A stretch of 64,000 nt of DNA, from the NCBI RefSeq assembly GCF_030013205.1, contig NZ_CP122648.1; one strand, 5' to 3'. The stretch is from Escherichia coli (GTDB lineage: Bacteria > Pseudomonadota > Gammaproteobacteria > Enterobacterales > Enterobacteriaceae). The notes under the pieces were generated by a model. The model searched no databases and was not told the origin of the DNA. It saw only the letters and a list, made by a program, of their open reading frames with translations. This document shows, one piece after another, positions 16,318-37,693 of this stretch (positions are counted from its first letter, which is position 1; every line of letters starts with the position of its first letter). The translations under genes and the position numbers were made by a program.

Positions 16318-18708
<2,391 letters not shown>

Positions 18709-18712
18709 ACCT

Positions 18713-19012
18713 ATGGCGCTTACAAAAGCTGAAATGTCAGAATATCTGTTTGATAAGCTTGGGCTTAGCAAGCGGGATGCCAAAGAACTGGTTGAACTGT
18801 TTTTCGAAGAGATCCGTCGCGCTCTGGAAAACGGCGAACAGGTGAAACTCTCTGGTTTTGGTAACTTCGATCTGCGTGATAAGAATCAACGCCCGGGACG
18901 TAACCCGAAAACGGGCGAGGATATTCCCATTACAGCACGGCGCGTGGTGACCTTCAGACCCGGGCAGAAGTTAAAAAGCCGGGTCGAAAACGCTTCGCCC
19001 AAAGACGAGTAA
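18713..19012 (+). CDS. ihfA: Integration host factor alpha subunit
   Basis: [99 protein letters not shown]. Confidence 0.97.
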
Positions 19013-19025
19013 TCTGATCTAACTA

Positions 19026-19054
19026 AAAAGGCCGCTCTGCGGCCTTTTTTCTTT
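19026..19054 (+). terminator. ihfA terminator hairpin; also the left copy (attL core) of the island-flanking direct repeat
   Basis: aaaaaggccgctctgcggccttttttcttt; the core ggccgctctgcggccttttttcttt recurs near 36016. Confidence 0.75.
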
Positions 19055-19317
19055 CAATAACCGATTGATTTATAATGTTTTATATATCTTCGTTCCACCA
19101 TGTGTCCACATTCAGTGGAGGGAGAGGGGAGTAAGCCCGCTACATTGTGGGCTTTGTCTTATAGTCTGATCACCGTTTCAAGTCAGTAAGGACACCAAAA
19201 AGAAAACCCGCAGTTTTTACGTTGCGGGTTTGTTGTTCATGTCTGTGAGATAGGGTGCCTTATCGACCTTACCCTGGCAACCGATTGACGGGGGATTGCT
19301 CCCCCGTCGCGGTTTCC

Positions 19318-19458
19318 TTACTGCTTACACTGTAAGAACGCCGCAAACTCCGCTCCCCAGAATCTCATCCGTATTTCGCACAGCGAACCGTGCAACATCC
19401 AGATGATGAGGATTGCCGTCACGCAGAACGTGATGGCCGTAAGCGATTTTTGCGACAT
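19318..19458 (-). CDS. Hok/Gef-family type I toxin (46 aa)
   Basis: MSQKSLTAITFCVTAILIIWMLHGSLCEIRMRFWGAEFAAFLQCKQ: single TM helix then SLCEIR..R....E.AAF signature shared by Hok/Gef/HokA; below the ORF-track size cutoff; coordinates hand-derived. Confidence 0.7.
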   Translation of the reverse strand: MSQKSLTAITFCVTAILIIWMLHGSLCEIRMRFWGAEFAAFLQCKQ

Positions 19459-19612
19459 AGCACTTGCTCCTTTTCCGGAGAGGCGCTAACCTTTCACTTG
19501 TCAAGGTAATGCGGTTAGGGCCTCGGTTAAACAGAAACGTTTTCCGGGGCCTTTCCACATCTGGCCTTCGGGTATTCCCTCCGACCATCAGCCGAAAGGC
19601 ACCCGCGCGCAA
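19325..19612 (-). other. mok-like reading frame fully overlapping the hok-like ORF in another frame (probable translational-coupling frame, not an independent protein)
   Basis: 95-aa track ORF ends 7 nt from the hok-like stop and spans it, the architecture of hok/mok loci. Confidence 0.45.
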
Positions 19613-19648
19613 TCTATCTCTTTTTTGTTACTCCGGCAATTCTGCCTG

Positions 19649-19909
19649 TTAATTTTGAGGTAAGGGCAAACTCATCTGATTGTTTCCTTTGTGTGAAGCT
19701 GGCAGTTCATGCCACGGGATACCTTCTGAAGAGTGAGCGCCGGAGGCGTGTTTCGATGTGAATTTATGGAAAGCTTCCAGTGTTGAGAAGCATACACCGC
19801 ATTCTAGGTTGTTACATTGGTAATACTTTTGCCGCACGGTGTTTGAATCATTTTCCGGACGACTGGTGCGGATTCGGGCAGATGCGCCACAAAGCGGACA
19901 ACGGAACAT
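19649..19909 (-). CDS. ogr: Ogr/Delta-family zinc-finger late-gene activator (P2 Ogr-like)
   Basis: MFRCPLCGASARIRTSRPENDSNTVRQKYYQCNNLECGVCFST...: CxxC ... CxxxxC pattern and spacing of P2 Ogr. Confidence 0.8.
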   Translation of the reverse strand: MFRCPLCGASARIRTSRPENDSNTVRQKYYQCNNLECGVCFSTLEAFHKFTSKHASGAHSSEGIPWHELPASHKGNNQMSLPLPQN

Positions 19910-20119
19910 AGCGACCTCCCTTACTGTGGTGCTTCCGCTATTCTAAGTTGTACTGAAACAGATTCCAATTAACAGCTTGTCTTGTGTGAAAAGTGGAAGT
20001 TCACAATTGTGATAGCCATTACTAACGTTGTGATGTATTAGTCAACGGGAAACAAGGCATCTGTAACATATCTATGGATATGTTATATTATTGTTGCCAT
20101 AGGAAAAATCCGCTTTAAA

Positions 20120-20434
20120 GTGGTTGCTGATCATGAATATTTGTATTGGAAGATAATTGCAATGAGCGAAAGAGTGTTTGAGAAAGAACTATATTCTGAA
20201 TGGGTTATACGCAATAGTCTATATTGGATGACTCCGCTTACTCGATGGAAACTCCATGAAGACGTTTCCCACTGGATAATCTCTTTTGAAAACGATAATC
20301 CCAAATTCCTTTATGAATTCGATAGGCTGCTTAATGATTACTCTTTGCGAGAAAAGCTACAGCATAAAACAGGGGCGTTGAGAGACTCTATTGTCCATAA
20401 AGTGCTTCGCAGTGTTGATGAGAGGCTTTCATAA
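20120..20434 (+). CDS. hxsD: His-Xaa-Ser system protein HxsD (LLNDYxLRE-motif protein)
   Basis: 104-aa ORF containing ...FDRLLNDYSLREKLQHK...; stop overlaps hxsB start (TAATG); true start may be the internal ATG near 20162. Confidence 0.7.
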   Translation: MVADHEYLYWKIIAMSERVFEKELYSEWVIRNSLYWMTPLTRWKLHEDVSHWIISFENDNPKFLYEFDRLLNDYSLREKLQHKTGALRDSIVHKVLRSVDERLS

Positions 20435-21822
20435 TGGAATTGATGCCATTTAATTTTGACAGATTGCCTAATGGACAGGTGTTTATAAGCAACCTTGCAG
20501 GTTTTCATCATTTCATTGGTGAGCAAGACCTTATTGATCTTTCTGATGAGCGAATTAGTTCGGAGCAATCAAACGTGCTAGAAAGTAAGCTTTTCATAAC
20601 CAGTGAAAGCTCATCTGCTATAACTCCCTATGCTTTAAGTTCTGCTTTTGCAAAACGATTGATGAATGAACTGGCTGTCAGGCCAATTTTCATGATTGTA
20701 CCCACATTACGTTGTGACCATACATGCAAGTATTGCCAGGTTAGTAGAGCTTCTGTTAATGCCTCAGGTTACGACCTAAATCCTGAGCTCATCCCCGATA
20801 TTATTTCGGCTATTAAAAAACTATCAACGCCACCTTACAAAATAGAGATACAGGGTGGGGAGCCTCTCTTGCGGTTTGATTTAATTCAGAACATCTATGA
20901 TCAATGTGCTGAAACGCTGGGAAGAACCAATTTTGAGATGGTGGTGGCATCAAGTCTGTCTGTCTTGAATGAGGATATGATTGAATGGTCGAGAGACCGG
21001 AACATAACGTTCTCTGTGTCGCTTGATGGTGAGGAAGTTGTTCACAACAGTAATCGAATTCTTGGTCGTGGGCTTGCGTACAGTAGAACAGTGTCAGGGG
21101 TAGAGGCTATCAAACACTCTTTAGGTGCTGGCCGCGTTGCAACGGTTACTACAGTTACTAAAGAGCTTATCAGACGTCCTGAATCGATTGTTCAGGCTCA
21201 CTTGTCTCTTGGGCTCAAGGACATGTTTATCCGACCTGTTAGTCCCTATGGGTTTGCACAAAAAGCTTCTTTCACCTTTTCTATGGACGAATACTTCAGC
21301 TTCTATGCCTCGTTGATAGATGAAATCCTTAAGATTAATAATGAAGGGATAAGGGTTGTGGAACATTCGGCCTCCATTCATCTGAAAAGGATCTTCAATC
21401 CCGGTTTTAGTGGCTATGCGGATTTAAAGTCTCCAAGTGGAGTCGTGCTTAACAGTATTCTTTTCAATTATGACGGTCGAGTATATGGTAGCGATGAGAG
21501 CCGTATGTTGCAGAAGGTGAATCCTGAAACGGAGTTCAGTGCGGGTGAAGTTAAGACGCTATCATTTTCTGATAGTCCTTACTATAACGCAGTATTGACT
21601 TCATCGTTCAATTTTGCTCTGCCAGGTTGTGATACATGTGCATATCAACCATTTTGTGGTTCAGATCCATGCCAGAACATAAGTGTACAGGGTGAGCCTG
21701 TCGGCGATAGGAGTCGTTCAACGTTTTGTCAATATCACAAGGGGATGTTCAGGTATCTGATGAACTGCATCTCAGAGGGTGGTTCGAAGGCTGAGATGCT
21801 AAAAGGATGGGCATATGTCTGA
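20434..21822 (+). CDS. hxsB: Radical SAM / SPASM-type maturase, first of the pair (HxsB-like)
   Basis: 462 aa; CxxxCxxC in ...PTLRCDHTCKYCQVS...; C-terminal Cys cluster ...LPGCDTCAYQPFCGSDPCQNI...; overlaps the neighbouring genes. Confidence 0.8.
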   Translation: MELMPFNFDRLPNGQVFISNLAGFHHFIGEQDLIDLSDERISSEQSNVLESKLFITSESSSAITPYALSSAFAKRLMNELAVRPIFMIVPTLRCDHTCKYCQVSRASVNASGYDLNPELIPDIISAIKKLSTPPYKIEIQGGEPLLRFDLIQNIYDQCAETLGRTNFEMVVASSLSVLNEDMIEWSRDRNITFSVSLDGEEVVHNSNRILGRGLAYSRTVSGVEAIKHSLGAGRVATVTTVTKELIRRPESIVQAHLSLGLKDMFIRPVSPYGFAQKASFTFSMDEYFSFYASLIDEILKINNEGIRVVEHSASIHLKRIFNPGFSGYADLKSPSGVVLNSILFNYDGRVYGSDESRMLQKVNPETEFSAGEVKTLSFSDSPYYNAVLTSSFNFALPGCDTCAYQPFCGSDPCQNISVQGEPVGDRSRSTFCQYHKGMFRYLMNCISEGGSKAEMLKGWAYV

Positions 21823-22927
21823 GGTTATCAGGAACGATATCTTTCATTTTGCTTCTACAGAGAACGTGCCCACGGGGTTCTATCGGTTATGCAAACAAAA
21901 ACCAGTGAACCCTTTATTCTTTTTGCCCAATTTGCTAGTAGTTGCTGAGGGCAATAATGATGCCATTCCACCATGCTTTGATTTCTCTGTTATTAGCACT
22001 GAATTATTTGAGTCAATTGAAGATGGAGATATTGGGATAATCAACAATGGCAATATGATACGCGTTATTCTGTCACGCAAAGCCAACCATAATACTGTCT
22101 TAGTTACGGAACGCTGCAATAACTTGTGTCTGTTTTGTTCGCAGCCACCAAAGAAAATAAATGATGACTGGCTACTTACCCAATCAGCTCTTGCTATAGC
22201 TTCATTTGGCTTGAACGGAGTTGTTGGGGTCAGCGGTGGTGAACCTTTGCTATATGGGGATGACTTCCTTCACTTCATTGATTTTATCATCGAGAATTCA
22301 CCAGATACTGCTTTACATGTTTTAACAAACGGACGCAAATTTGCTGATACCAACTTTACACAGGAAATGGCAAAGCGAAGCAAAAAGATCAAAATCACCT
22401 TTGGTATCCCGCTCTACTCATCAAGACCACTTGTGCATGATCATCTGGTAGGGAGTGATGGCGCATTTAATGAAACGGTTAAAGGGTTAATCAATGCAGG
22501 AAACTTGGGGATTAATATCGAACTTAGAGTTATTCCTACACTGGCTAACTATACCGAATTGGATGATATCGTAGAATTCGCTGGCCGTGTGTTCTCCAAC
22601 ATCAATCAGATTTCCCTTATGGGGTTGGAGCCTATCGGTTGGGCACGAAAAAACTGGTCCACCATCTTCATTGATCACAGTAGTTATAGTGAGAAAATAA
22701 TCTCTGCCATAGACGCTGCATACAGGTCAGGCATACCTCTGACAATTTTTAATTATCCTTTGTGTTATCTTCCTGAAAGGGCTAGGGAGCTTGCTGTTCA
22801 GTCGATCTCTGATTGGAAAAATTACTATCCAAAAGAATGTGATGAATGTACTCAGAAGCCTTCCTGTGCTGGCTATTTCAGTTCCTCAAAAGGCCGTTTT
22901 CATCAATCACCGAGACCAATTTTATGA
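21815..22927 (+). CDS. hxsC: Radical SAM maturase, second of the pair (HxsC-like)
   Basis: 370 aa; CxxxCxxC in ...VTERCNNLCLFCSQP...; C-terminal Cys-rich ...CDECTQKPSCAGYF...; 8-nt overlap with hxsB, ATGA overlap with hxsA. Confidence 0.8.
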   Translation: MSEVIRNDIFHFASTENVPTGFYRLCKQKPVNPLFFLPNLLVVAEGNNDAIPPCFDFSVISTELFESIEDGDIGIINNGNMIRVILSRKANHNTVLVTERCNNLCLFCSQPPKKINDDWLLTQSALAIASFGLNGVVGVSGGEPLLYGDDFLHFIDFIIENSPDTALHVLTNGRKFADTNFTQEMAKRSKKIKITFGIPLYSSRPLVHDHLVGSDGAFNETVKGLINAGNLGINIELRVIPTLANYTELDDIVEFAGRVFSNINQISLMGLEPIGWARKNWSTIFIDHSSYSEKIISAIDAAYRSGIPLTIFNYPLCYLPERARELAVQSISDWKNYYPKECDECTQKPSCAGYFSSSKGRFHQSPRPIL

Positions 22928-23559
22928 AAAAGTTTAATTTTGCTGCTCTACTTCCGGGATTTTTGGCTCTCAACAATTCTGTATGGGCAAGCGATTCATC
23001 TACAGGAGCGAGTGATTTACCTGGTATGACTCTTAATGAGCATGATTTAGTGATAGCTCCACTTAACACGGAAGTCCCATTTTATATCGCAGGGCATCGA
23101 AGCCATAGTTCTCATAGGAGCCATAGCTCTCATAGATCCTCATCAGGTGGTGGATACTATGGTGGAAGTACCCCCTATTATCCAAAAACATACAGCTCAC
23201 CAAGTTCATCTGGTTCTTCAAGTTCAGGTGCAAGTTCCTCATCGTCCTCTTCCTCGGTGCGTGCACTTCGTTCTAACGATAATAATAGAACCACTAACAC
23301 GAGTTCTGTTGGAACTTCAGAGGTTAACCGTACGAGTAATGGGCTTGCTTCTGATGCAGAGAAACGTAAGCGATTGATTATGCGAGTTCAGTTCGCATTG
23401 CTGGACAGGGGATTTTATAACGGAAATATTGACGGCATAATGGGGCCATCCACAAGGCTGTCTGTGAAAAATTACCGCATTGCGAATGGATTACCGATTC
23501 CTGCAACTGAAACACTCGACGCACAATTGTTAAATTCTTTGAATATATTAGCTCGCTAA
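22924..23559 (+). CDS. hxsA: His-Xaa-Ser repeat protein (HxsA-like), secreted, with peptidoglycan-binding-like C-terminal domain
   Basis: From internal ATG of track ORF 22846..23559: MKKFNFAALLPGFLALNNSVWA (signal peptide), HRSHSSHRSHSSHRS (5 HXS repeats), Ser/Gly-rich linker, C-terminal ...RVQFALLDRGFYNGNIDGIMGPSTRLSVKNYRIANGLPIPATETLDAQLL. Confidence 0.8.
   Translation: MKKFNFAALLPGFLALNNSVWASDSSTGASDLPGMTLNEHDLVIAPLNTEVPFYIAGHRSHSSHRSHSSHRSSSGGGYYGGSTPYYPKTYSSPSSSGSSSSGASSSSSSSSVRALRSNDNNRTTNTSSVGTSEVNRTSNGLASDAEKRKRLIMRVQFALLDRGFYNGNIDGIMGPSTRLSVKNYRIANGLPIPATETLDAQLLNSLNILAR
23097..23135 (+). repeat. Short in-frame tandem DNA repeat encoding the His-Xaa-Ser units
   Basis: agccatagttctcatagg / agccatagctctcataga-like 18-nt units; coordinates approximate. 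Confidence 0.6.
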
Positions 23560-23861
23560 ATCTCAGTGAGGTATAAATAAAAAGCAATAAATTATATTAG
23601 TCGCGCGTCCATTATTGGTGGGTAAGTTCAAGGACCGTCTGCTCTGTGTCAGGGGCAGATGGTCAGATAAGACTGTGCCGTTTAGCCCGCTAGTACGTGT
23701 CTGGACTAATACATTTAAGAGTCTCATTCTGCTATCCATTCCGGGATTTTTGCCTCAAGCTCAAGCTGTGTGGTAAAGCCGCTGTTATCAATGGTGTGCT
23801 CGGCTTTTGCAATAATCCAGTCCTGATTATCAATCTCGCTTTTAAATCCTGTTACCGTGCC

Positions 23862-23869
23862 ATGCATTT
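23862..23869. repeat. Target-site duplication (left copy) of the IS66-family element
   Basis: ATGCATTT, repeated at ~26569-26576. Confidence 0.7.
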
Positions 23870-23899
23870 GTAAGCGACTCGTCAGAACCGTATTGATAT

Positions 23900-25471
23900 T
23901 TACTGAGAGCTCAGATCAACTTTCCAGGGCAACAGATCGCGTACCCGGTTTGCCGGCCAGTCCTGGATATGTTCAATGACGTAACGCAGCCACTTTTCTG
24001 GCTCCACATTGTTCAGACGGCATGTGCCGATCAGCGAGTACAACACCGCCGCATGTTCACCACCGCTGTCGGAACCCGCGAACATCCAGTTTTTCCGGCC
24101 TACGGCCACTCCCCGTAAGGCGTTCTCTGCGGTGTTGTTGTCGATTTCCACCCAGCCATTACTGCAGTACACGTTCAGTGCATCCCACTGTTTCAGCAGG
24201 TATGCGAACGCTTTTGCCGTATCTGAGTGACGCGACAGTGTTTTCATCTGTTGCTGTATCCAGTCATACAGTGACTGCATCAGTGGCGCGGCTCTGGCTT
24301 TTCTTGCCGCCAGACGCTGTTCTGCTGAACAGCCCCGGACCTCTGCCTCGATGGCATACAGTTCACCGATACGCTGCAGGGCTTCCGTGGTGATGTAGGT
24401 GGGCGCTCTTGCATGCACATCGTGGATTTTTCTCCGGGCATGAGCCATACACGCGGCTTCCGTTATTCTGCCGGATTCGTATAACGCCCGGTAACCACCG
24501 TAAGCATCGGCCTGAAGCACACCGCTGTAACCGGCCAGGTGATTTTGTGGATGGATACCTTTCCGGTCCGGACTGTACGCGAACCAGACCGCCGGGGGCA
24601 TCTGTGAACCGGCGTTACGGTCATCACGGACGTAGACCCACAGCCGGGCTGTCCGGGTTTTACCGCTGCCCGGCTCCTGGACCGGGACGGGGATATCATC
24701 AGCATGGACTTTACCGGGCATCAGCACATACTGGCGCAGGACGTCATACAGCGGCTCCAGCAGTTCAGCAACAGCACCTGTCCAGCGCCCCAGTGTGGCA
24801 CGGCTCAGCTCCACTCCCTGACGACGGTATATTTCTGACTGGCGGTATAACGGCAGATGGTCTGCATATTTCCCGGTGACAACATGGGCCAGAAGCCCCG
24901 CTCCGGCATAACTGCGTGCAATGGGTTTTGAAGGTACTGGTGCCTGTACGATATGGTCGCACCGGCAACAGGCCTGTTTCGGACGTTGTGTTTCGATAAC
25001 CTTAAAGGCGCTGCTGATAAGCTCCAGTTGCTCTGACACATCACATCCCAGAGAACTGAGTTCACCACCACAGGCAGGACAGCATTCCTCTTCCGGCCGG
25101 ATAACCCGGGTTTCACGGGGAAGTGAGGCCGGTAACGGTTTACGGGCTGAAGACTGGCGCAGGGCGGATGGCAGTACCGGGTCATATTGCTCACCCAGCG
25201 TTTCCGCCATTTCTTCCTGAAGTGCGCTGATTCGCTCCTGTGCTTCCTGTATCTGCCGTTCGGTTTTTGCACGAAGTTTTTCTGAGCTTTTACCGAACTG
25301 CATACGTTGCAGTTTCGCAACCAGCGCCTTCAGCCGGTTGATTTCGGAAGCATAAGCCGCCACCCGCTGTGAGAGCAGGCGGTTGTATTCAGCCATCTGG
25401 CGGATGGTGTCCTGTTGCGTCTGCAACAGTGCCCGCAGGCGGGCGTTCTCATGAGCAAGTGAGGTGTCCAT
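23900..25471 (-). CDS. IS66-family transposase TnpC
   Basis: 523 aa with leucine-zipper-like N-terminus, Cys cluster (CPACGG...CRCDH) and C-terminal ...[23 protein letters not shown]... typical of IS66 TnpC. Confidence 0.85.
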
Positions 25472-25490
25472 ATCCTCACTTTACAACGGG

Positions 25491-25838
25491 TTATATGCGG
25501 ATTCCAGCGCGTTCCGTTCGTTTCGGGTGCTTCCAGTTGATACCTTCAAGAAGCATGGATAACTGAGCCGGAGTAAGGTGCACCTTGCCGTCACGGGTGA
25601 CTGGCCAGACGAAGCGGCCCCGCTCCAGGCGTTTGGTGAAGAGGCACAGTCCGTCACTGTCAGCCCACAACACTTTTATCTGGTCACCCCGGCGTCCGCG
25701 GAAGATGAACAGGTGTCCGGAGAACGGGTCATCCTTCAGGACGTTCTGAACTTTTGATGCCAGGCCGTTAAAGCCATTTCGCATATCGGTGATACCTGCA
25801 ACCAGCCAGATACGCGAACCTGCAGGGAGAGATATCAT
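25491..25838 (-). CDS. IS66-family accessory protein TnpB
   Basis: 115 aa, ...RIWLVAGITDMRNGFNGLASKVQNVL... Confidence 0.8.
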   Translation of the reverse strand: MISLPAGSRIWLVAGITDMRNGFNGLASKVQNVLKDDPFSGHLFIFRGRRGDQIKVLWADSDGLCLFTKRLERGRFVWPVTRDGKVHLTPAQLSMLLEGINWKHPKRTERAGIRI

Positions 25839-26515
25839 CAGTGGCTGCTCCCTTTTATTTCGCGGATAAGTGTCTGTAATAACGCCGGCGTCAGTTTACC
25901 TTTAAGCCTGAGAGTTCCGGCCGGCAGAACCAGCTCACAACACAGACTGTCGGACGGTGTATTTATCTGCTCTGGTTCCTGTGCGGGGGCCGGGATTTTA
26001 TTATCCGGCTCCGGCGTTAACGTCACGGGAAGCAGTGCCGGCATATTTTTTCCGGAAGGCAGCAGGCCACCTTTCCGGTATTGATGGCGCCAGTTGAAGA
26101 GCAGGTTATCGTTGATTCCGTTTTCCCGGGCGATCTGCGCCACACAGGCTCCGGGCTGCAGTGACTGCTCCACTAAGGCGATTTTAAACTCATAAGGGAA
26201 GTTGGGCCGCCGGGGACGTTTTTTTACCACGGGGGCTTCGGATATAACGGTGCTTTCAGGACGTACGACTGGTACCGTGGAAAATTGTCCGTAAAGGCAG
26301 GCATCAAGTTCCTGCTCCGACATGCCTGCGGGCAAAGGCCACGAAAGGCCAGCTCTCCGAAAGCGCACGAACATACTACAAACTGTTGATTTTGGTACAC
26401 CCAGGCGACGCCCGGCCACAACCCGGGGTAAATGTTCTTCAAAGTGAAGACGTAAAGCTTCAGTGATCCAGGTCCGGTGTTTCATACGATAGTGTCCATT
26501 AAAAATGATGGACAT
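25838..26515 (-). CDS. IS66-family accessory protein TnpA (start uncertain; track ORF may be over-extended)
   Basis: ...RPRRPNFPYEFKIALVEQSLQPGACVAQIARENGINDNLLFNWRHQYRKGG... Confidence 0.65.
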   Translation of the reverse strand: MSIIFNGHYRMKHRTWITEALRLHFEEHLPRVVAGRRLGVPKSTVCSMFVRFRRAGLSWPLPAGMSEQELDACLYGQFSTVPVVRPESTVISEAPVVKKRPRRPNFPYEFKIALVEQSLQPGACVAQIARENGINDNLLFNWRHQYRKGGLLPSGKNMPALLPVTLTPEPDNKIPAPAQEPEQINTPSDSLCCELVLPAGTLRLKGKLTPALLQTLIREIKGSSH

Positions 26516-26568
26516 TATTTTTGTAGAGCCGGAGGAAACAGACCAGACGGTTTAAATGAGCCGGTTAC

Positions 26569-26576
26569 ATGCATTT
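26569..26576. repeat. Target-site duplication (right copy) of the IS66-family element
   Basis: ATGCATTT. Confidence 0.7.
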
Positions 26577-27266
26577 CGGGGTAGAGTTCTGCACGCCCAC
26601 GTGCCAGCGTGATGGAAAATGATGCGGCTCCGCGTTGTAGCTGCTGCCACTTTGCCGCCGCTGCGCGTCTTGCTGCCTGCTCGTTCTGATAAGTCTTGCG
26701 TAACACAAACACATTGCCTTCCGCACCTTCCATATAATCACCTTCACGGCTGCTGCTTTTCTCCTTTTTAGGTTTTGGTGGTTTGCGGCGTTTCACACTG
26801 ACTTTTTTCTTTTTCCCGTAATTAAGATCAAGCCAGTAAGCGCGTACCCCCGTATACGCTTCGCGGTCAGCAATGCGGAACTGATGGCGATCGCCGCTGT
26901 TGCGCGTGATGGCGAACGATGGCAACGGCTGGCCCTGTGCGTTCACGCCACCGCCTGGCATGATGAATAACAGATTATCGCTTTTTACCGTGGTGATTGC
27001 GCCCAGCATTTCCGCCATGCGCGTAAGGAAGGACATGTCGCTTTCTTCGGTCTGGTCGGCGTGGTCGATTTCGATATCCATCAGCATTTCGCTGATTTGC
27101 GGTTTCAGGCCGTACCGATGAGCGATGGCGGATACCACACGCTCAACGGTCACATCATGCCAGGACACCTCACGTTTAACGTTAAATTCATCCCGAAAAT
27201 CTGCGCTTCTGGCTGAAACAGTCAGCCTGTCCGGCGGTCCTTCGTGAGCGATTTCATCAACAATTA

Positions 27267-27685
27267 GACTGGCCCCCTGAATCTCCAGACAACCAATATC
27301 ACTTAAATAAGTGATAGTCTTAATACTAGTTTTTAGACTAGTCATTGGAGAGCAGATGATTGATGTCTTAGGACCGGAGAAACGCAGACGGCGTACTACA
27401 CAGGAAAAGATCGCTATTGTTCAGCAGAGTTTTGAACCGGGAATGACGGTCTCCCTTGTTGCCCGGCAACACGGTGTGGCAGCCAGCCAGTTATTTCTCT
27501 GGCGCAAGCAATACCAGGAGGGAAGTCTTACTGCTGTGGCCGCAGGAGAGCAGGTCGTTCCTGCCTCTGAACTTGCTGCTGCCATGAAGCAGATTAAAGA
27601 ACTCCAGCGCCTGCTCGGCAAAAAAACGATGGAAAATGAACTCCTTAAAGAAGCCGTTGAATACGGGCGTGCAAAAAAAGTGGAT
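27267..27685 (+). mobile_element. IS2 left-end fragment (IRL plus 5' part of insC/orfA), truncated near IS2 position ~416
   Basis: TAGACTGGCCCCCTGAATCTCCAGACAACCAATATCACTTAAATAAGTGATAGTCTTAATACTAGTTTTTAGACTAGTCATTGGAG... then Ins[57 protein letters not shown]...[10 protein letters not shown]; homology ends just after the A-run; remainder of IS2 absent. Confidence 0.8.
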
Positions 27686-30247
27686 ACAGTGCTCAGCGAA
27701 AAACAACAAAAGCTGATGCAGCAGTTAAGCACCCGGCTTGAACGCCTGAATGAATCGCGCACACGGGAAATTCAGAAAATGCGGGAGCTTGGCGGAGAGC
27801 TGAAACGCCACGGCATTTCCCTGACAGGCAGCGATAACACCATCCAGCAGGCCATCAGACGCACCGAACAGTACAACAACCAGCTTGAACGCGAACGGCA
27901 GGCGCTTGCGCGTGTAACACGGGCGCGTGAGCGGTATTCGCGCGCGCAGGAAACAGCGGGAAAACTGAAAACAGGTGGTGCGCTGGCAATTGGTGCGGCA
28001 ACGGCGGGCGGCTATGCTGCCGGGCGTTTTTTGCAGCCTGCGATCGGGTTCGGCAAAGAGATGTCCCGCGTTCAGGCACTGACGCGAATCGACAAAAACA
28101 GCCCGCAGTTTAAGGCGCTGCGTGAGCAGGCGTTAAAACTTGGCTCTGAAACACAGTTTACTGCGAGTGATGCCGCCAGTGGGCAGAGCTTTCTGGCAAT
28201 GGCTGGTTTTACTCCGCAGGCCATTCAGGCCGCATTGCCCGGTGTTCTTAATATGGCGCTGGCAGGTGGCGTCGAACTCGGCGAGACGGCTGATATAGGC
28301 TCCAATATCCTCACACAGTTCAACCTGACAGCCGATCAAATGGACCGTGTTGGCGATACGCTGACAGCAGCATTCACCCGGACCAATACTGATTTACGCG
28401 CGCTGGGCGAAACCATGAAGTATACCGGTCCGGTTGCCGCAAAACTTGGTATCAGTCTTGAAGAAGCGGCGGCCATGGCCGGGATGCTTGCCAATAATGG
28501 TCTTCGCGGAAGCGATGCTGGTACGGCCATGCGCGCAAGTCTGTCCCGCCTTGCATCACCGCCAAAAGCTGCGGCTGATGCACTGAAAGAGCTGGGGGTG
28601 TCAGTTGCTGACGCCAGAGGCAAAATGCGCCCGATGGAGGATGTGCTGCTTGATCTCTATAAGGCGACACAAAAATACGGACAGGTGGACCAGGTTTCCT
28701 TCTTCAAGGACATCGCCGGAGAAGAGGCGTTCGTTGGTTTGCAGACGCTTGTTGCGGCGGCTGGTTCAGGAGAGCTGCAAAAACTGACCAGAGAATTGCA
28801 GGGGGCAAGGGGAGAGGCCGATCGCGTCGCAAAAGTAATGGCCGATAATCTTGATGGGGACCTGAAAAATCTCGACAGCGCATGGGAAGGTCTTCGTATT
28901 CGCATCAGTGATCTGGTTGACGGTCCGCTGCGTTCTGTCACGCAGTGGCTCACGCGGGTGCTTGAAAAAATCACCTCGCTGGCGCAGGCCCATCCGGTAC
29001 TGACGCGCCAGCTACTGATAGCAGGCGGTGCGTTGCTGGCAATGACTGCAACGATTGGCTCGTTGTCGCTGGTTATTGGGGTGCTTTACGGGAAGCTGGC
29101 CACCCTGCGTCTTGGTTTTGACATTCTTACCCGGTCAATGAATGTCGTCAGGGTGTTGCCTGCGCTGTGGGGAATGGTGACGGGTTCCGTTTCTTTACTG
29201 GGAGGCGCCATCGGGGCGTTGTTCAGTCCGGTTGGTCTTATCGTGGCTGCGCTTGCCGGAGCTGCCGTTCTTATCTGGAAATACTGGGATCCCATCAGGG
29301 CATTTTTTGCCGGGGTGTTCAGCGGGATTATGGAAAGGCTGACCCCGTTGCGCGAAACCTTTGAACGGTTTGGTCCTGTTTTTGACACAATCGGAAGCGG
29401 GATCAGCCAGGTGTTTAACTGGTTTAAATCGCTGCTGTCACCGATGGAGTCCAGCAAGGAAACGCTGGATAAATGTACCAGTGCTGGCGAGATATTCGGT
29501 AACGTTCTTGGCGGTGCGTTACAGCTTGTTCTGACACCTGCAAAAATGCTACTGGATACGCTGGCGTGGATACTTGAAAAACTTGGCGTCCTTCCGGATG
29601 AAGCGGAAAGGGCGCGCAAGAAAATCGAAGACGCACAGCGTGCGGCCATTCTTCAGGACAAGGTTGCCTTGCTTCAGGGTGACCTGGCGAAAATCAATCC
29701 GCCGAAGCCTGTGGAAAATGGCAATGGCACCGGAGGTAATAAACCCAAAGACAACAAACCGCTCACAGACAGCAATACCGGGACGCTACGCAGACTCAGC
29801 AAAATTGCTGATAACACAGGTAAGCTGGTTGATGAGACGAAAAAACGCATTGGCCCCGGCGATATTGTCTTTAAGAACCTGCCCCGCGCACTTGCTGTTC
29901 GTGGAGAGTGGCAGGAGCGGAAGATTGCGCAGGTCAGTAAGCCTGCCCCCGCAATTAATATCACACCCGTGGTCCCGGCTCCGCTGCCTCCGGCGCTGGT
30001 CCCTGTTGTTGCGGCCAGCTCCCGCCCGGTGGCGGAGGCCATACGATCTCCAGTGGCATCAGTTCCTGTAACTTCCCGTAACCGGGAGCCTGTTGCCTCC
30101 GGATTTGGTGGTGAAATTCATGTTCATCTGCATAACGTTGTTACGCAGAATCCCCGCGAACTGGCGAAACTGGTCGGTGAAATGGTCAGGGCAGAAATGG
30201 AACGGCGCGCCCGTGCCGGGCGTGGCAGTTTTTACGATAAAGATTGA
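27356..30247 (+). CDS. Chimeric ORF: IS2 InsC N-terminal ~110 codons fused in frame to a P2 gpT-like tail tape measure protein
   Basis: Track ORF 27311..30247 (978 aa); after ...EYGRAKK the sequence continues as tape-measure-like (..[71 protein letters not shown]..). Confidence 0.75.
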
Positions 30248-30253
30248 GGAGTC

Positions 30254-30748
30254 ATGGCCATGATGATGATCTACGGCATGTTTGTTTTTGAGCTGCGCAC
30301 GCTGCCGCATCAGCAGTTACAGCAAAACAAAAGCTGGCGGCATGTGAAAAATGAACGCGTTAACCGTTCAGCAAGCTGGCAGTATATCGGTGCAGGTGAT
30401 GATCGCATCGTTCTTTCTGGTATGCTTTATCCTGAAATTACAGGTGGCGAAGTGTCGCTGTCGCTGCTGACCACGCAGGCGTATACAGGACGCCCCTGGC
30501 CTCTTATTGATGGCGTCGGGCAGATTTACGGCATGTATGTCCTGACCGAAACGAATACGACCCGTTCCGAGTTTGATCGCTACGGTAAGGCGAAAAAGAT
30601 AGAATTTTCACTGACCCTTGAACGCTGTGATGAGGATTTGCGGGAGCGCCTGCAATCCTCATCGTTCAGCGATATGCTGTCCGGCTTCAAAGATAAAGTG
30701 ACATCATCCCTTAACAGCGCGGCCAGTTCAGTTAAAGGGCTGTTCTGA
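30254..30748 (+). CDS. P2 gpU-like tail protein
   Basis: MMMIYGMFVFELRTLPHQQLQQNKSWRHVKNERVNRSASWQYIGAGDDRIVLSGMLYPEITGGEVSL... resembles P2 gpU (MMVLGMFVFELRT...). Confidence 0.8.
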   Translation: MAMMMIYGMFVFELRTLPHQQLQQNKSWRHVKNERVNRSASWQYIGAGDDRIVLSGMLYPEITGGEVSLSLLTTQAYTGRPWPLIDGVGQIYGMYVLTETNTTRSEFDRYGKAKKIEFSLTLERCDEDLRERLQSSSFSDMLSGFKDKVTSSLNSAASSVKGLF

Positions 30749-30918
30749 TTTAATGCTGGCCACTCATACCCTCATACCTGGTAATAAGTGGCCAGTCTTA
30801 ACACTCACCATTTGATTGCACCAGTGTTAACGATTTGTTACTGGACATCAGACACGCTGGATAGCCAGTAGAAACATACCATAAAAATTATTACAATAAT
30901 TGGTCACATGATTATCTT

Positions 30919-31482
30919 ATGCTGAATAATAGAGATATGAATATTAATGAACTTAAAGATTGTATTCACTATGAAGTAATCGGTAGCGAGCGTCCTTTCT
31001 CCTGGCGAAAGGCAATTGTTCGCGCAATAAAACATAGAAGAGTTCGTTATTTATTTTGGTGGCGCATAGCCAAATACCTTTTTGATAAAGGCGGATACTG
31101 TCGGAAGATTGCGGGGAAAATAGAACGTTTCATTCTTGATAAATATAATGTAACAGTCCCTTTAACTGTAAATATAGGGAAAGGCTTTGATATTTCTTAT
31201 CTCAACAGTGTTGTTATCGGTCACAAAGTAACAATCGGTGAAAATTGTTCAATAAAACCAGGGGTAACTATTGGGCTGCGTGGTGATTTTAATGATATGG
31301 ATATTGTTATAGGACATAATGTGACCATTGGTTGTAATGCCACCATTCTTGGTGGCAAAGTGCGTATAGGAAACAATGTCACAATAGGTGCTCATGCATT
31401 GGTATTGCATGATATTCCAGATGATTCAACATTCATCACTAAATTTCAGTCTGAAGTTATCTGCTCGTCCTCCCGCACATAA
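30919..31482 (+). CDS. Hexapeptide-repeat (left-handed beta-helix) acetyltransferase, AT-rich cargo gene
   Basis: Repeats of [LIV]-G-x-x-x-x-I-G ([22 protein letters not shown]...[33 protein letters not shown]); low GC; 3' end overlaps tfa 3' end. Confidence 0.75.
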
Positions 31483-32063
31483 CCCTGATTCATCAGCTCT
31501 GGCCATACGATATCCGGAGCTGTACTGGTGTCAATTCTACTCACTAATACTCTGTATTTTCTCCAGGAATCCAGTTGTGAATTTTCCTCGTTTGTTGCTA
31601 TTTCAAGATTAACTGCATCCTGCAGAATTGCGATGTTATCTGTTGCTTCCTGGATCAACCTTGCCTTTTTCTCTTCCGCTTCCCGTATCCGAAACAGTTT
31701 TTCTGCTTCCTCATCCTTCACCCAGGATACGCCGTCCCACTTCTGATACTCCCCTGCTGGCGACAACCAGGTGACATTCTCTGGTAGCGGTCCGGGTTCA
31801 GAAATAAACAACGCGTCCCCCGATGCCACGTCATAGACCGTTTTACCACGATGGTCTTCAACAATATTCCACGATTCATTTTCACTGTTAAAAACTGCCA
31901 CAAAGCCAGCAGGAATTTCCGGTGGGGCGATATCTGTAGAATTGGCTGGCAGCCCTGTATGAGGTGGAATATATGCGTCACCTTCACCAATAAACTCATT
32001 AGTTCCGGCCAGCAGGTTATAAATTTTTACAGTACGTGATTGTTCACTCATTCTGAATGCCAT
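31446..32063 (-). CDS. Tail fibre assembly chaperone (Tfa; P2 gpG-like)
   Basis: 205 aa immediately downstream of, and start/stop-overlapping with, the tail fibre gene; Tfa-like sequence. Confidence 0.75.
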
Positions 32064-33724
32064 TATGCAAGCCTCACAATATAATTAAATGCGATGTTTT
32101 TAACGGTGTTTTCCGCGTTACCAGCAGCGTTAACGGTGATGGTGTGTCCATGTGAACCAATCGCAACAGAGTGCGTATGAGCGCCAATACCAACAGTGTG
32201 TGCATGTGCCCCAGCACTTGTAGCGGTACCTGATACTGAGTGGGTATGTGCGCCAGAAGAAGGCACAGTTCCATTCCCCACCACCGTGCCACTTGATGCA
32301 CCATCAAGCCAGTCGAAATTCATACCTCCACTGTTTGGTCTCCTTAATGGAACGGTATGTGTATGTGCGCCAGCACTATTTGCAGTACCAGATACATTGT
32401 GGGTATGTGCACCAGTGTTATTCGTTGATTTAGTACCGTAATCAAACGACGATGTGGTTTTCGTACCCAAATCCGTACTGGATGCGCTGGCACTGTGGGT
32501 GTGCGATTTAATGCCATCCTGTTCCTGAGACAATACGGCCCGACCACTGGCGGGTTTGCCCTTGATTGTCCAGCCGCGCATATCTGGAATAACACCAGAA
32601 GGATAGGCAATAGCCAGTTTCGGATATGCTGCCTTATCAAACGTCTGCCCCTGCATGATTGCATAACCTGCAGGTGGCGTATCTGATGGCCACGGCAGCG
32701 GAACACCTGGCGGAAACGCTTCAATATTTGCCGAGCCGTCAAATTTTACGCCGTTAATTGTCCTTGCCGTTTTCAGCTTTGTTGCTGTAGCAGCATTGCC
32801 GGATAGTTCGCCAGAAAGACCACCGCTGAATGTCTGTTTCGCCGCCCATGTCTGAGCTTCGTCGATAATTGGCACACGTCTTGTCGTAATCGTGCGGCTT
32901 CCCGGATTTCCTGAAATGCGAACCATAAAAAAGCGGTAATTCGCTTTACTTGCAGTGCTGCGCCATACATGCATTGAGCGCCCCGTACCGAAATCATCAC
33001 TCGGACCAACTGCGATGTTTATCAGGTTGCCATCAATGACGCCCCAGTCCATACCGTCGGGAATATTGGTCATGTTATCAAGCCGAACGGTTATCAGACT
33101 GCCCGGCACAAAATCGTAGGTCTGCCAGTCCAGGCTGGTGAGTTTTGCCACTGCGCCACCGATCCCCATATTCAGGGGCAACGAAAAGGAGTTATACACT
33201 TCTCGCCATTCGGTCCATGTGCTCCCGGCGTAGACGCGCTCAAAAGTGCGCCCCTGTGTGGTTTCTGATTTCCCTGTGGTTGTGTAACGCTGCCAGACAG
33301 ATACACCATCAAAACGCCTGATTACTTCCAGTATCCCAAGCAATGTCGCCCCAGCAGCGTCCAGCATCGGACCGTTTGTCGCCTTTCCTGTAACACTGTA
33401 AATACCGGGGTCGGTTAGAACATTCAAATCACCTTCGTAATAACGGCTCTCTGACTGATGACCGACTCTTAACCACGGTTCCCACTGCGGATTTGATGCA
33501 TCCCAGCTTGCCGCAAGGCAGCGAACGTACATATTCCCACGACGAGTGGTATAACGTTGCGTTCTTCCATAATTCCCGCCTTCGAGGATCTCAAGCGTCC
33601 CCTGAGCAAAGCCGCCTTCCTCTGGATAATTGCGTTCATATGAAGCTATAGCCGAGCTACTGTTACGCCATAAACCAAGATGCTCAGCGGCTCCAAGCGT
33701 ATTCAGGTCTATAGTCGTACTCAA
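32063..33724 (-). CDS. Phage tail fibre protein
   Basis: 553 aa; ...[41 protein letters not shown]... and C-terminal His-rich repeats [38 protein letters not shown]. Confidence 0.8.
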
Positions 33725-34000
33725 AGGGCGGGTAGTTCAAGAAGCTGTTCCGGAGCGTTTGTTGATGATCCCGATCTGCATAAAAATATTCTTATTTGCT
33801 ATCCGTATGGTAACTATGAATATGACAATATTATCTATGTTGAAAAGAAAACTAATGCATTGGGCGTTGTTGTGACGTATGCACAGACTGCACGAGACGA
33901 TGCTGAATAAGATACTACAGAGATAGTCCACTTTTTTGTTTATTTGTCGGGATAAAAACAAATTACCCCGACTCACCATGTATTAATCTTCCGCTTTAAG

Positions 34001-34384
34001 TTAGTCTTGTAGCTGCGCTGTCCTGCTATGCAGCAAAGCGGCGTACTTTAATGCGTCCTGTGCTTTCTGGAATTTAAGTGCATAGTCAGTGGCGATTTTT
34101 TCCAGTTCAGCGATTCGGTTGTCTTTGGTTTCCAGCCAATCAAGTAGCGCCAATACTTCAGGATCCCCGACATCCAACACTGTTACGCGTGATTTTTCAT
34201 AATGTTCGTCGGCAAGAGTTCGACCAATTTTGAAATCTCCATCATCACCATAACCGGAGCAGCCATAAACAACCTGTGCTCCAGATATTCGCTGAATTGA
34301 CATTTCTTCGCCGCAAATAGGGCATTTTGGTACTGGTGCAGGTGAATAACGTTCACGTAATGCCTGATAGTTGATTTTGCTCAT
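34001..34384 (-). CDS. Hypothetical phage protein with CxxC zinc-ribbon-like motif
   Basis: 127 aa, ...PVPKCPICGEEMSIQRISGAQVVYGCSGYG...; no family recognised. Confidence 0.4.
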   Translation of the reverse strand: MSKINYQALRERYSPAPVPKCPICGEEMSIQRISGAQVVYGCSGYGDDGDFKIGRTLADEHYEKSRVTVLDVGDPEVLALLDWLETKDNRIAELEKIATDYALKFQKAQDALKYAALLHSRTAQLQD

Positions 34385-34642
34385 TAAGTCGCTCTTCTTG
34401 TTTATGTTCTGAGATGGAGATCAGGGCGAACTCGCCCTGACGTTGTGTTATTCAGGAAATAACGCCCTGATATTTCCGGCCATCTGACTGGTTATCTGTG
34501 CGGTTGGTACTGGCTGTGACAGGGGGCGTTCTGTCCTGGTTTGTGTCACTGATAACGCCTCATCGTCAGCCCATGCAGCCAGTCGGTAAGCCTCTGCCGG
34601 ATTCATTTTCAGAAGTGCCAGCCCGGCCAGAAAAGCCACGCG

Positions 34643-35221
34643 TTGGCCGCTTTTGCGGGCTTCCGGTGTAAGGCTGTCCAGCCAGGCGCATGCTTCGCTT
34701 TCGTTCTTGACGGCCGCAGGCTTCAGATAGAAACTTATCTGAGTAAGTCTGAATGTGTTCAGTTGCTGGATGCACTGGCTGAAAATCCCGATGAACGGCT
34801 GGCTGTCGAAATCCTTCTGTCGACCGGGGCGCGATGGGGCGAGGTAGCGGTACTGGAGCAGCGCCGTGTTCTTCATTGTCGAATCACTTTTTCAAAAACG
34901 AAGAACAGCAAAAACCGTACCGTTCCTATTTCTGAAAGCCTGTTTGAAAAGATCAAAAAACGGGGCGGGAAACTGGTGTTTCCGACGCTGGATTATCCAT
35001 TGGTTCGCGATGTCATCAAAACGGTCGCATCTGATGTTCCTGACGGCCAGGCTGTTCATGCGCTGCGCCACACCTTCGCCAGTCATTTCATGATGAACGG
35101 CGGCAATATTCTGACGCTCCAGAAAATTCTGGGGCACGCAAAGATTCAGACAACGATGATTTATGCCCATCTTGCGCCGGATTACTTGCAGGATGCGGTG
35201 AGATTTAATCCAATAGCTTGA
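34643..35221 (+). pseudogene. int: Tyrosine recombinase (phage integrase) C-terminal catalytic-domain fragment
   Basis: ...LSTGARWGEVA...NRTVPIS...HALRHTFASHFMMNGGNILTLQKILGHAKIQTTMIYAHLAPDYL (R, HxxR, catalytic Y); ~190 codons versus ~330 for full length; N-terminal domain not found in frame. Confidence 0.7.
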
Positions 35222-35231
35222 AGGTAGGAAA

Positions 35232-35615
35232 ATGAAAGATATTGAACATTCAGGGGAAATGGAAAAGAAAAAACGGGAGTTTATTAAAAAACTGGAATCG
35301 ATAACGCCAAGAGAATTCTTCCGTTTTTTAAATGAAAAAAACGTCACTGTGGTTTGCCTTGGGTGCGGACTGAAAGATACCCAGATAACTGCCACTACAG
35401 GTAAGTTAAATCTCCAACAACTCCTGGATGGTGAAAAAGGGGAAGAGTTTATGACGTACTTCAGGCTTGAACCAGGTCACCCAGGTGATAGTGATGCGAA
35501 TTATTACTACAAATCTTTTTGTGAGAACTGCGGTTATATAACTATGCATGCAGTGACTCCGGTATTGAACTGGTTGGGATCGCAAAAAAACCAGGAAGGG
35601 TCAGGTGATGAATGA
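35232..35615 (+). CDS. Hypothetical protein with two CxxC pairs (putative zinc ribbon)
   Basis: 127 aa; ...VVCLGCGLKD... and ...FCENCGYITMH...; start preceded by aggtaggaaaATG. Confidence 0.45.
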   Translation: MKDIEHSGEMEKKKREFIKKLESITPREFFRFLNEKNVTVVCLGCGLKDTQITATTGKLNLQQLLDGEKGEEFMTYFRLEPGHPGDSDANYYYKSFCENCGYITMHAVTPVLNWLGSQKNQEGSGDE

Positions 35616-35907
35616 GTATACTTATATCACGGGTTTTTCCATTCCGTATCCAGGAGGAATTCAGGTGAGCAATCGCAGAAGTCAGGCAAGTCGTGATGAG
35701 TTCGCTCTTGATAGCCGTGTTGCACGAATGGAGTCTGATATCTCATACATCAAGAGAGATATTGAAGAGCTGAAGAGCGATCTCAAGGATGTGAGAGGCG
35801 ATATTGATAAGATACGCACAACAGATTTCAGGCTCATGTTTGGTGCGTTGATTACTACAGCCTTGGGGTTAGCTGGCTTAATGGCGAGAGGTTTTCACTG
35901 GATTTAA
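35605..35907 (+). CDS. Hypothetical coiled-coil protein with C-terminal transmembrane helix
   Basis: 100 aa; ...ESDISYIKRDIEELKSDLKDVRGDIDKIRTTDFRLMFGALITTALGLAGLMARGF; overlaps previous ORF by 11 nt. Confidence 0.45.
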   Translation: MMNEYTYITGFSIPYPGGIQVSNRRSQASRDEFALDSRVARMESDISYIKRDIEELKSDLKDVRGDIDKIRTTDFRLMFGALITTALGLAGLMARGFHWI

Positions 35908-36015
35908 GATCCACAAAGTGACCACATCTCTGTTATTTGTTGTGGTTGGCTGTGTTTTTGTGTGTCTGTAAGTCTTTGATAATTATCTAACTTATTGATT
36001 TTTGTTTGTGTTTAT

Positions 36016-36040
36016 GGCCGCTCTGCGGCCTTTTTTCTTT
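36016..36040 (+). repeat. Right copy (attR core) of the island-flanking direct repeat; doubles as the terminator-like hairpin upstream of btuC
   Basis: ggccgctctgcggccttttttcttt, identical to ~19030-19054. Confidence 0.75.
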
Positions 36041-36098
36041 TCACTGTCGAAGAGTCACCGTAAAATCAACGCCATGACACTTCAGCAGAACGGATACC

Positions 36099-37079: not shown

Positions 37080-37141
37080 CCGCAAAAAGACGGTCTATGA
37101 TTAAAAGCTAAGATTTTTACTGACCACACCCAGGAGAAACG

Positions 37142-37693
37142 ATGCAAGATTCCATTCTGACGACCGTAGTGAAAGATATCGACGGTGAAGTGACCACGCT
37201 GGAGAAGTACGCCGGTAATGTGCTGTTGATTGTCAATGTCGCCTCAAAGTGTGGCTTAACGCCGCAATATGAGCAGTTGGAGAATATTCAGAAAGCCTGG
37301 GCCGATCGTGGTTTTGTGGTGCTGGGATTCCCGTGCAACCAGTTTCTGGAGCAAGAACCGGGCAGCGATGAAGAGATTAAAACTTACTGCACCACTACAT
37401 GGGGGGTGACGTTCCCGATGTTCAGTAAGATTGAAGTTAATGGTGAAGGACGCCATCCGCTGTATCAAAAATTGATTGCCGCAGCGCCGACCGCAGTCGC
37501 GCCGGAAGAGAGCGGATTCTATGCCCGTATGGTCAGCAAAGGTCGTGCACCGCTGTACCCTGATGATATCTTATGGAATTTTGAGAAATTTTTAGTTGGC
37601 AGGGACGGATTGGTCATCCAGCGTTTTTCCCCGGATATGACGCCGGAAGATCCCATTGTGATGGAAAGCATTAAACTGGCGTTGGCAAAATAA
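37142..37693 (+). CDS. btuE: Glutathione peroxidase-family protein BtuE
   Basis: 183 aa, ...[20 protein letters not shown]...GFPCNQF... Confidence 0.95.

Follow-up and report, generated by a model that had tools for sequence, protein, structure and literature searches.

P2 recombines by means of Int, IHF and Cox, at a core of ~27 bp. In Escherichia coli, prophages of the P2 type are typically found at small-RNA genes or intergenic sites, such as rybB, cyaR and cpxP-fieF (E. coli W genome paper, PMC3032704). The closest described relative of the element studied here is a 35.8-kb P2-like prophage which the SE11 genome paper places between btuC and ihfA in its table, with 25 nt duplicated (Oshima et al., 2008; PMC2608844), so that both the ihfA integration site and its 25-nt duplication have been known since 2008. 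The same 3' end yields a small RNA in Salmonella: STnc540, a ProQ-dependent sRNA, is cut from the ihfA 3'UTR, and the homologous terminator forms the end of both this sRNA and the ihfA mRNA (PMC6315103). As for the cargo of the present element, an antiphage function has been described for the hxs operon, giving the HXS system (PMC13128918).

Here we analysed a 64-kb stretch of E. coli DNA (hereafter the window) in which two copies of a 25-bp sequence lie between ihfA and btuC. It is very likely, in our view, that a temperate phage of the P2 family (Peduoviridae) integrated site-specifically into the ihfA intrinsic terminator and left them behind as its attL and attR cores. What lies between them today is a badly decayed, probably fixed remnant rather than an intact mobile island.

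Results

Boundaries and gene content of the element

The 25-mer GGCCGCTCTGCGGCCTTTTTTCTTT is present in exactly two copies on the + strand, at 19030-19054 and 36016-36040. Allowing up to 3 mismatches, no third match was found in the 64 kb, and 100 shuffles gave 0; a chance repeat was thus ruled out as the origin of the two copies. The first copy starts 17 nt past the ihfA stop codon (19010-19012) and the second ends 58 nt upstream of the btuC ATG (36099). The two stop being identical exactly at the 25-bp edges and enclose 16,961 bp, the edges of the prophage remnant being 19055-36015. A tRNA target was discarded, as 18000-37500 contains no tRNA or tmRNA gene. Gene calls taken from the RefSeq annotation of the ETEC1748 record, which is 100% identical, gave the following map:

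18713-19012, + strand: ihfA, integration host factor alpha, the host gene with the target terminator (RefSeq annotation)
19030-19054, + strand: attL core, the native ihfA terminator (A5, GGCCGC-TCT-GCGGCC, T6CTTT), also the 3' hairpin of Rfam STnc540
19055-19317: P' arm of the former attP, with several hairpins and an IHF consensus at 19058-19070 (- strand)
19318-19458, - strand: Hok/Gef family toxin gene of the prophage (annotation, phage-collection comparison)
19649-19909, - strand: ogr/Delta-like late-gene activator, a P2-family marker beside att (annotation, SE11 alignment)
20162-23559, + strand: hxsD-hxsB-hxsC-hxsA cargo operon (HXS antiphage system) in the gpD-ogr slot (NCBIfam equivalogs above cut-offs)
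23724-23869, - strand: 3' fragment of gpD, severed by IS66 (annotation, SE11 alignment)
23870-26566, - strand: IS66-family ISCro1 (tnpA, tnpB, tnpC) with the 8-bp target duplication ATGCATTT
26567-27264, - strand: 5'-side remainder of gpD, VgrG/Pvc8 family
27356-27688, + strand: transposase fragment where a deletion took out sheath, tube and gpE along with the beginning of the tape measure gene
27674-30247, + strand: tail tape measure gene gpT without its N-terminus, a pseudogene (annotation, SE11 alignment)
30260-30748, + strand: gpU-like tail protein
30937-31482, + strand: hexapeptide-repeat acetyltransferase, cargo
31446-32063, - strand: tail fibre assembly protein
32063-33724, - strand: tail fibre gene, C-terminal part, N-terminus missing
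34013-34384, - strand: fragment of an ead/Ea22-like gene
34448-34762, - strand: ParR-like partition gene, truncated at the junction of a 4.6-kb deletion (34736-34739)
34736-35221, + strand: integrase remnant, residues 163-323 of a 325-aa P2-family tyrosine integrase
35232-35907, + strand: two small cargo ORFs in a variable slot between int and att
35908-36015: P arm of the former attP, with IHF consensus sites at 35969-35981 and 35988-36000 (- strand)
36016-36040, + strand: attR core, where hairpin and T-run recur but the upstream A-run is absent
36099-37079, + strand: btuC, the first host gene past the island

The P2-type late genes ogr, gpD, gpT, gpU, tail fibre and tail fibre assembly stand in the order of the family, although only remnants of them are left in the window. 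Congruently with the first-pass annotation, which had described P2-like phage DNA plus cargo, both the gene calls and the SE11 alignment place the element in this group. PADLOC v2, which has no Hxs model, returned only weak radical-SAM (viperin) matches on the cargo. The two ORFs between int and att matched nothing in NCBIfam or PADLOC and only PHROGs of unknown function; in other lysogens this slot is filled by other ORFs.

Decay of the prophage

The element lacks sheath, tube, baseplate, head, lysis and replication genes. Without a complete virion gene set, it is a remnant and not a functional family member. We reconstructed its decay by comparison with the sister strain ETEC6333 and from the target duplication of IS66. 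According to this reconstruction, the prophage decayed after its integration, in a porcine ETEC lineage: gpD was interrupted by an IS66 element, some of the tail genes went with an IS-associated deletion, the genes for head, lysis, baseplate and replication were lost, and the N-terminal half of the integrase disappeared in a 4.6-kb deletion. The remnant has kept its cargo intact, above all the HXS antiphage operon.

The part of the integrase that was retained is the catalytic domain with its R, H-x-x-R, H and Y residues, while the arm-binding and core-binding domains (residues 1-162) are deleted. Judged from its sequence, the remnant probably cannot excise on its own. It is very improbable that it is still mobile, excised through its two perfect cores by the catalytic half of the integrase or by an identical integrase from another prophage. 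Both cores are indeed still exact 25-mers and the catalytic residues are in place, but besides these domains the island has lost its Cox/Apl-type early region, genomes almost never hold a second copy of the integrase gene, and the same island structure is common to 14 genomes over at least 80% of its length.

Comparison with the SE11 prophage

The intact SE11 prophage, PP_SE11-4, is bounded on either side by the same core as the island of the window and shares its site and orientation. The two share 95-98% DNA identity in hok-ogr, gpD, gpT-gpU, the 3' half of int and the att-proximal arm, with all common segments collinear, and their integrases are 97% identical over the retained part. PP_SE11-4 is complete with 35.8 kb, whereas the element in the window amounts to 17 kb and has lost half of int together with the genes for head, lysis, baseplate, sheath, tube and replication. 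It also contains IS66, which PP_SE11-4 does not, and its cargo differs: the gpD-ogr slot is taken by hxsDBCA, and the ORFs between int and att are not those of PP_SE11-4.

The right-hand part of the island contains ead/Ea22-like and ParR/ParM-type genes that are missing from the SE11 prophage, and GC content ranges from 39% to 57% along the island. These features could point to a composite of two elements in tandem at the same att, later fused by deletion, with the ihfA side stemming from a P2-like phage and the btuC side from a plasmid-like or lambdoid ParMR-Ea22 element. We find such a composite hardly credible and reject it because the island holds no internal copy of the core, even with up to 3 mismatches, and is collinear with single prophages such as that of SE11. 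Moreover, in ETEC6333 ParM lies directly beside a P2-type replication endonuclease and an integrase of the same family, as would be expected for the mosaic early region of one prophage.

The empty site in E. coli genomes

We reconstructed the empty site as the left flank, one copy of the core and the right flank (702 bp). This sequence is contiguous in 5120 of the 5426 complete E. coli genomes; in strain C4 it is 100% identical to the reconstruction, and the 40 kb around the site contain one core copy. In ~305 of the 5426 genomes the site is split, and homology on the btuC side resumes exactly where the repeat begins, at query position 318. The site is thus occupied in ~5.6% of the complete genomes, by one integrase lineage, and the core is found in two copies only where the integrase-bearing prophage is present. 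In the alignment of attB, attL and attR, identity switches at the core edges. Among 100,044 species-representative genomes, the exact core occurs in six Escherichia-like representatives only, once in each, and the attR junction has no match.

These results, together with the repeat scan and the hairpin fold described below, bear out what had been proposed from the window alone, namely an island in the ihfA terminator bounded by a 25-bp duplication, outside which the annotated order of ihfA followed by btuC resumes. Island-free genomes do not carry two copies, and the repeat does not lie off the boundary. Short GC-rich hairpins with T-runs are common in intergenic DNA, but the notion that the repeat was a pre-existing duplicated terminator or REP-like element between which foreign DNA was gathered by other means can safely be dismissed, since empty-site genomes hold a single copy, two copies accompany only the integrase-bearing prophage and the homology breakpoints fall on the repeat edges.

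Integrase lineage and attachment site

The integrase is 97-100% identical among the lysogens at the ihfA-btuC site and 48.5-48.8% identical over its full length to those of P2 and Wphi; no isolated phage was found with an integrase more than 57% identical to it. Integrase DNA occurs in 298 genomes as against ~305 split sites, a match at the level of counts, and it is always chromosomal. The order int, cargo, btuC was seen in all eight of the loci inspected (8/8).

For integration into this site, the phage attP would have carried the same 25 bp as the host site. A P2-type tyrosine integrase would then have exchanged strands inside this common sequence, and therefore a full copy would be left at each junction. 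IHF probably helped by binding the consensus sites beside the core; 3 of the 7 IHF consensus matches in the 64 kb fall within 50 bp of the cores. Candidate arm-type integrase sites were limited to one 10-bp direct repeat, AACCGATTGA, 4 and 224 nt past the core, which as a single 10-bp pair was too weak to be accepted as such.

We searched sequence databases for the excised attP junction and found none in the phage collection, IMG/VR or JGI metagenomes. The attP was therefore deduced from the prophage ends alone. When the reconstructed attP (P arm, core and P' arm) was compared with phage records by megablast and blastn, no match appeared beyond the hok-ogr region common to P88-like phages, and exact-junction scans of IMG/VR and JGI metagenomes gave no match. 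The four IMG/VR matches to the core plus P' arm are all attL sequences with an ihfA flank.

The terminator hairpin and STnc540

The repeat consists of a 6-bp GC stem and a 3-nt loop followed by T6CTTT, the layout of an intrinsic terminator. The hairpin folds with -16.3 kcal/mol at attL (z -5.35) and with -11.6 kcal/mol at attR. These folds and the attB/attL/attR alignment confirm that hairpin and T-run are kept at both junctions, as the first-pass annotation had stated. A terminator scan called the attR copy terminator-like and did not list the attL copy, for which the fold was used in its place; the attL copy was likely missed because an A-T extended stem uses up the T-run under the rule of the scan.

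From this layout, we infer that transcription terminates at both copies. The ihfA mRNA and the small RNA derived from its 3'UTR would keep their native hairpin and U-run at attL, and at attR the second hairpin and T-run would separate the int-cargo transcription unit of the prophage from btuCED, which makes it plausible that btuCED is insulated from transcription of the island. The final 3 nt of the attR core are shared with a promoter-like TTTTCA-17-TAAAAT (36038-36066).

The hairpin lies inside the Rfam family STnc540 (RF02082), as its terminator hairpin and 3' end. The STnc540 model scores 67.4 bits at the empty site and 41.9 bits at attL (gathering score 38), and 24.2 bits at attR, below the gathering score. 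Downstream, the model extends ~56 nt past the hairpin, into sequence that the insertion has shifted by 17 kb. STnc540 was characterised in Salmonella, and the E. coli sequence would be its counterpart.

Because the hairpin is the 3' end of STnc540, the ihfA site fits the usual targeting of small-RNA 3' ends, such as rybB and cyaR, by P2-type phages. The earlier view that the site is unusual for a P2-like element did not hold, given that small-RNA and intergenic sites are typical for E. coli prophages of this type. A broader reading seems unlikely to us and is offered tentatively: integration would preserve STnc540 at attL and plant a second ProQ-type 3' hairpin that ends the int-cargo transcript at attR, which could create a new prophage-encoded 3'UTR RNA or put btuCED under prophage read-through control, and sRNA 3' ends (rybB, cyaR, STnc540) may be the specific targets towards which integrases of the P2 family diversified.

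Discussion

Our results do not change the current understanding of site-specific integration, and the integration of a P2-family phage at ihfA is a correct but ordinary finding. Its practical value is one of annotation, as it fixes the exact edges of a prophage remnant from porcine ETEC and shows how far that remnant has decayed. Decayed prophages with an intact HXS operon are easily missed by prophage predictors, which bears on claims that HXS belongs to the chromosome and is not carried by prophages. Moreover, where P2-like viruses have been reported to carry BtuC as an auxiliary metabolic gene, a boundary overrun at the ihfA-btuC site is the probable cause.

Phages are known to integrate at sRNA 3' ends, and the shared sequence of att core and STnc540 hairpin adds a minor case to this pattern. 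Judging by titles and abstracts, none of the 9 papers mentioning STnc540 appears to concern phage integration, and no paper linking STnc540 with phage attachment was found at that level.

Compared with P2, the element of the window has a tyrosine integrase gene that adjoins att and is transcribed towards it, ogr at the opposite end, a short core about as long as that of P2 and, next to it, IHF consensus sites. It differs from P2 in the variable cargo slot between int and att and in the inversion of the tail gene block FI-U relative to gpD-ogr. With the P2-type prophages at rybB, cyaR and cpxP-fieF it shares a P2-family integrase that targets the 3' hairpin of a non-tRNA transcript and rebuilds that hairpin, but its core is different and its integrase, ~48% identical to those of P2 and Wphi, belongs to a distinct lineage.

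The 25-bp repeat and the empty site

The 25-mer GGCCGCTCTGCGGCCTTTTTTCTTT is present in two exact copies, which are its only matches in the 64-kb window with up to 3 mismatches allowed; 100 shuffles yielded none. Identity between the copies stops exactly at the 25-bp edges.

19030-19054, + strand: ihfA-side copy (attL), starting 17 nt past the ihfA stop codon
36016-36040, + strand: btuC-side copy (attR), with the btuC start codon 58 nt beyond its end

We built a 702-bp empty-site query from the left flank, one repeat copy and the right flank and searched it against 5426 complete E. coli genomes. The site was unbroken in 5120 of them and split in two places in ~305, where the btuC-side piece starts at query position 318, the first base of the repeat. 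Strain C4 carries the query at 100% identity, with btuC directly after ihfA and the 25-mer once in 40 kb. When this empty site (attB) was aligned with the attL and attR sequences from the window and from the intact 35.8-kb P2-like prophage PP_SE11-4 of E. coli SE11, identity switched precisely at the core edges. The repeat is therefore the edge of the strain-specific DNA, with the ihfA-btuC order outside it, as the first-pass annotation had proposed, and no island-free genome with two copies was found. Among species-representative genomes, six Escherichia-like ones have one exact core each and other species have none.

Two side observations concern the comparison strains. In C4 the type III secretion effector gene espL1 lies between yniD and thrS (L004 10562-12460), and ihfA follows ~8 kb downstream. 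In the sister strain ETEC6333 the attL core (L003 1231-1255) reads GGCCGCTTTGCGGCC, a C-to-T substitution in the loop of the hairpin that leaves the stem intact, and attR is unchanged.

A decayed P2-family prophage with variable cargo

Over 18000-37500 the window matches the chromosome of the porcine ETEC strain ETEC1748 at 100% identity, and at least 80% of that region is common to thirteen other genomes, those listed being mostly porcine ETEC/O139 isolates. RefSeq annotation of the identical record, PHROG and NCBIfam scans and alignment to the SE11 prophage agree in identifying the DNA between the copies as a single P2-family prophage with cargo, lying with ogr towards ihfA and int towards btuC, in line with the initial P2-like reading.

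19910-23730: variable gpD-ogr slot
20162-23559: intact hxsD-hxsB-hxsC-hxsA operon, in the gpD-ogr slot
23870-26566: ISCro1 (IS66-family, 2,697 bp), splitting gpD, with an 8-bp target duplication ATGCATTT at 23862-23869 and 26567-26574
27356-27688: transposase fragment, separate from ISCro1, marking where the sheath, tube and gpE genes were deleted
35222-35907: second variable slot, from the int stop codon to the att core

The remnant keeps hok and ogr (97.7% identical to SE11), a tape measure gene without its N-terminus, gpU, a C-terminal tail fibre fragment with the tail fibre assembly gene, Ea22-like and ParR-like early-gene fragments, the 3' half of int and ~110 bp of the att-proximal arm. 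Compared with an intact P2-family prophage, it has no sheath, tube, gpE, baseplate, lysis, head, terminase or replication genes. In ETEC6333 a near-full integrase, ParM and the replication endonuclease are still present. Compared with that strain, the window lacks one IS1 and 4,607 bp (junction 34736-34739), which makes the window copy a later stage of decay. Internal-deletion decay of this ihfA-site family occurred more than once.

The cargo comprises hxsDBCA, an acetyltransferase gene and a pair of small ORFs in the int-att slot. Across genomes the gpD-ogr slot is either empty or occupied by hxsDBCA or by a PIN-domain, DUF3800, YecA-family or hypothetical gene. The int-att slot holds two ORFs of 127 and 100 aa in the window, both in PHROGs of unknown function, and different one- or two-ORF sets in other lysogens (L002, L005, L006, L017, L018), divergence beginning in the last few int codons. 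HXS was recently shown to act against phages by blocking the entry of their DNA, and the same paper states that 77% of E. coli hxs operons have no overlap with predicted prophages (PMC13128918). The ogr-hxs-gpD arrangement of the window recurs in 45 genomes; there, as in the window, hxs is P2-prophage cargo, and some of the carriers are remnants that predictors would overlook.

Integrase and IHF consensus sites

The integrase ORF of the window matches residues 163-323 of the 325-aa SE11 protein; it keeps the catalytic residues but has lost the arm-binding and core-binding domains of the N-terminus. Integrases of five lysogens at the ihfA-btuC site are 97-100% identical to one another, match the P2 and Wphi integrases at ~48% and find a top match of only 56.5% identity in the phage collection. 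Judged by sequence, they form a distinct P2-type lineage, to date seen in prophages only. Integrase DNA was found in 298 of the 5426 genomes, always chromosomal and in nearly all cases single-copy, in count-level agreement with the ~305 occupied sites. All eight inspected loci share the order int, one or two variable ORFs, core, btuC. As a separate observation, E. coli TD225-C4 (L019) holds an independent remnant at this site, in which the tail genes run straight into the final ~68 codons of int, a further case of decay by internal deletion.

Seven matches to the IHF consensus WATCAANNNNTTR occur in the window, and three of these (19058-19070, 35969-35981 and 35988-36000) are no more than 50 bp from the cores. 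This placement fits a P2-like, IHF-assisted intasome, from which we infer IHF binding. An attP junction was found in neither the phage collection, IMG/VR nor the JGI metagenomes, so we can only infer the excised form of this prophage family.

The core as a predicted terminator and its overlap with STnc540

Both junctions retain a hairpin and T-run, as the first reading had it. The attL RNA folds into an A5/U5-extended GGCCGC-UCU-GCGGCC hairpin with a U-rich tail (-16.3 kcal/mol, z = -5.35). Read from the other strand, the hairpin is followed by U5, making attL a candidate, potentially bidirectional terminator that faces the convergent hok-ogr genes. The attR copy keeps the 6-bp GC stem and a T6CTTT tract (-11.6 kcal/mol) and was terminator-like in a consensus scan; the scan missed attL, most likely because the A-T stem extension consumes the T-run under its rule. 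Transcription of int and the cargo ORFs runs towards btuC, which puts the second hairpin in a good position to end it, and it is plausible that this predicted terminator insulates the btuC side. A promoter-like TTTTCA-17-TAAAAT starts within the last three core bases, so btuC keeps its short native upstream region.

The Rfam family STnc540 (RF02082) spans the core (window 18954-19110; L004 20242-20400), scoring 67.4 bits at the empty site, 41.9 at attL and 24.2 at attR (gathering score 38); its model takes in ~56 nt downstream of the terminator that are actually btuC upstream region. The Salmonella STnc540, a ProQ-dependent sRNA of ~60-90 nt, derives from the ihfA 3'UTR and has its 3' end at the ihfA terminator (PMC6315103). 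Since the duplicated core contains both the hairpin and the U-run, and the sequence preceding the hairpin at attL is all native, the insertion alters neither the 3' end of ihfA mRNA nor any E. coli STnc540 orthologue. An sRNA- or ProQ-related consequence of the duplicated hairpin is unlikely. No link to phage attachment was found in the nine papers mentioning STnc540, judged by title or abstract, and the overlap is a minor addition to known facts.

Comparison with known integration sites

The first-pass interpretation is supported in its essentials, except that it considered the site unusual for a P2-like element. The E. coli W genome paper places P2-type prophages at the rybB ncRNA, the cyaR RNA and cpxP-fieF (PMC3032704), which makes non-tRNA targets, specifically sRNA 3' ends, typical for such prophages. 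Among the putative auxiliary metabolic genes of P2-like viruses, a 2026 survey includes the BtuC permease (PMC13100340). Because btuC (window 36099-37079) begins only 58 nt beyond the integration site of this family, the entry probably reflects a prophage boundary drawn too far and not a phage gene. The integration site and its duplication are already known: the SE11 prophage occupies the same ihfA-btuC site with the same 25-nt duplication (Oshima et al., 2008; PMC2608844), and the feature described here is that known att site holding a decayed P2-type prophage.
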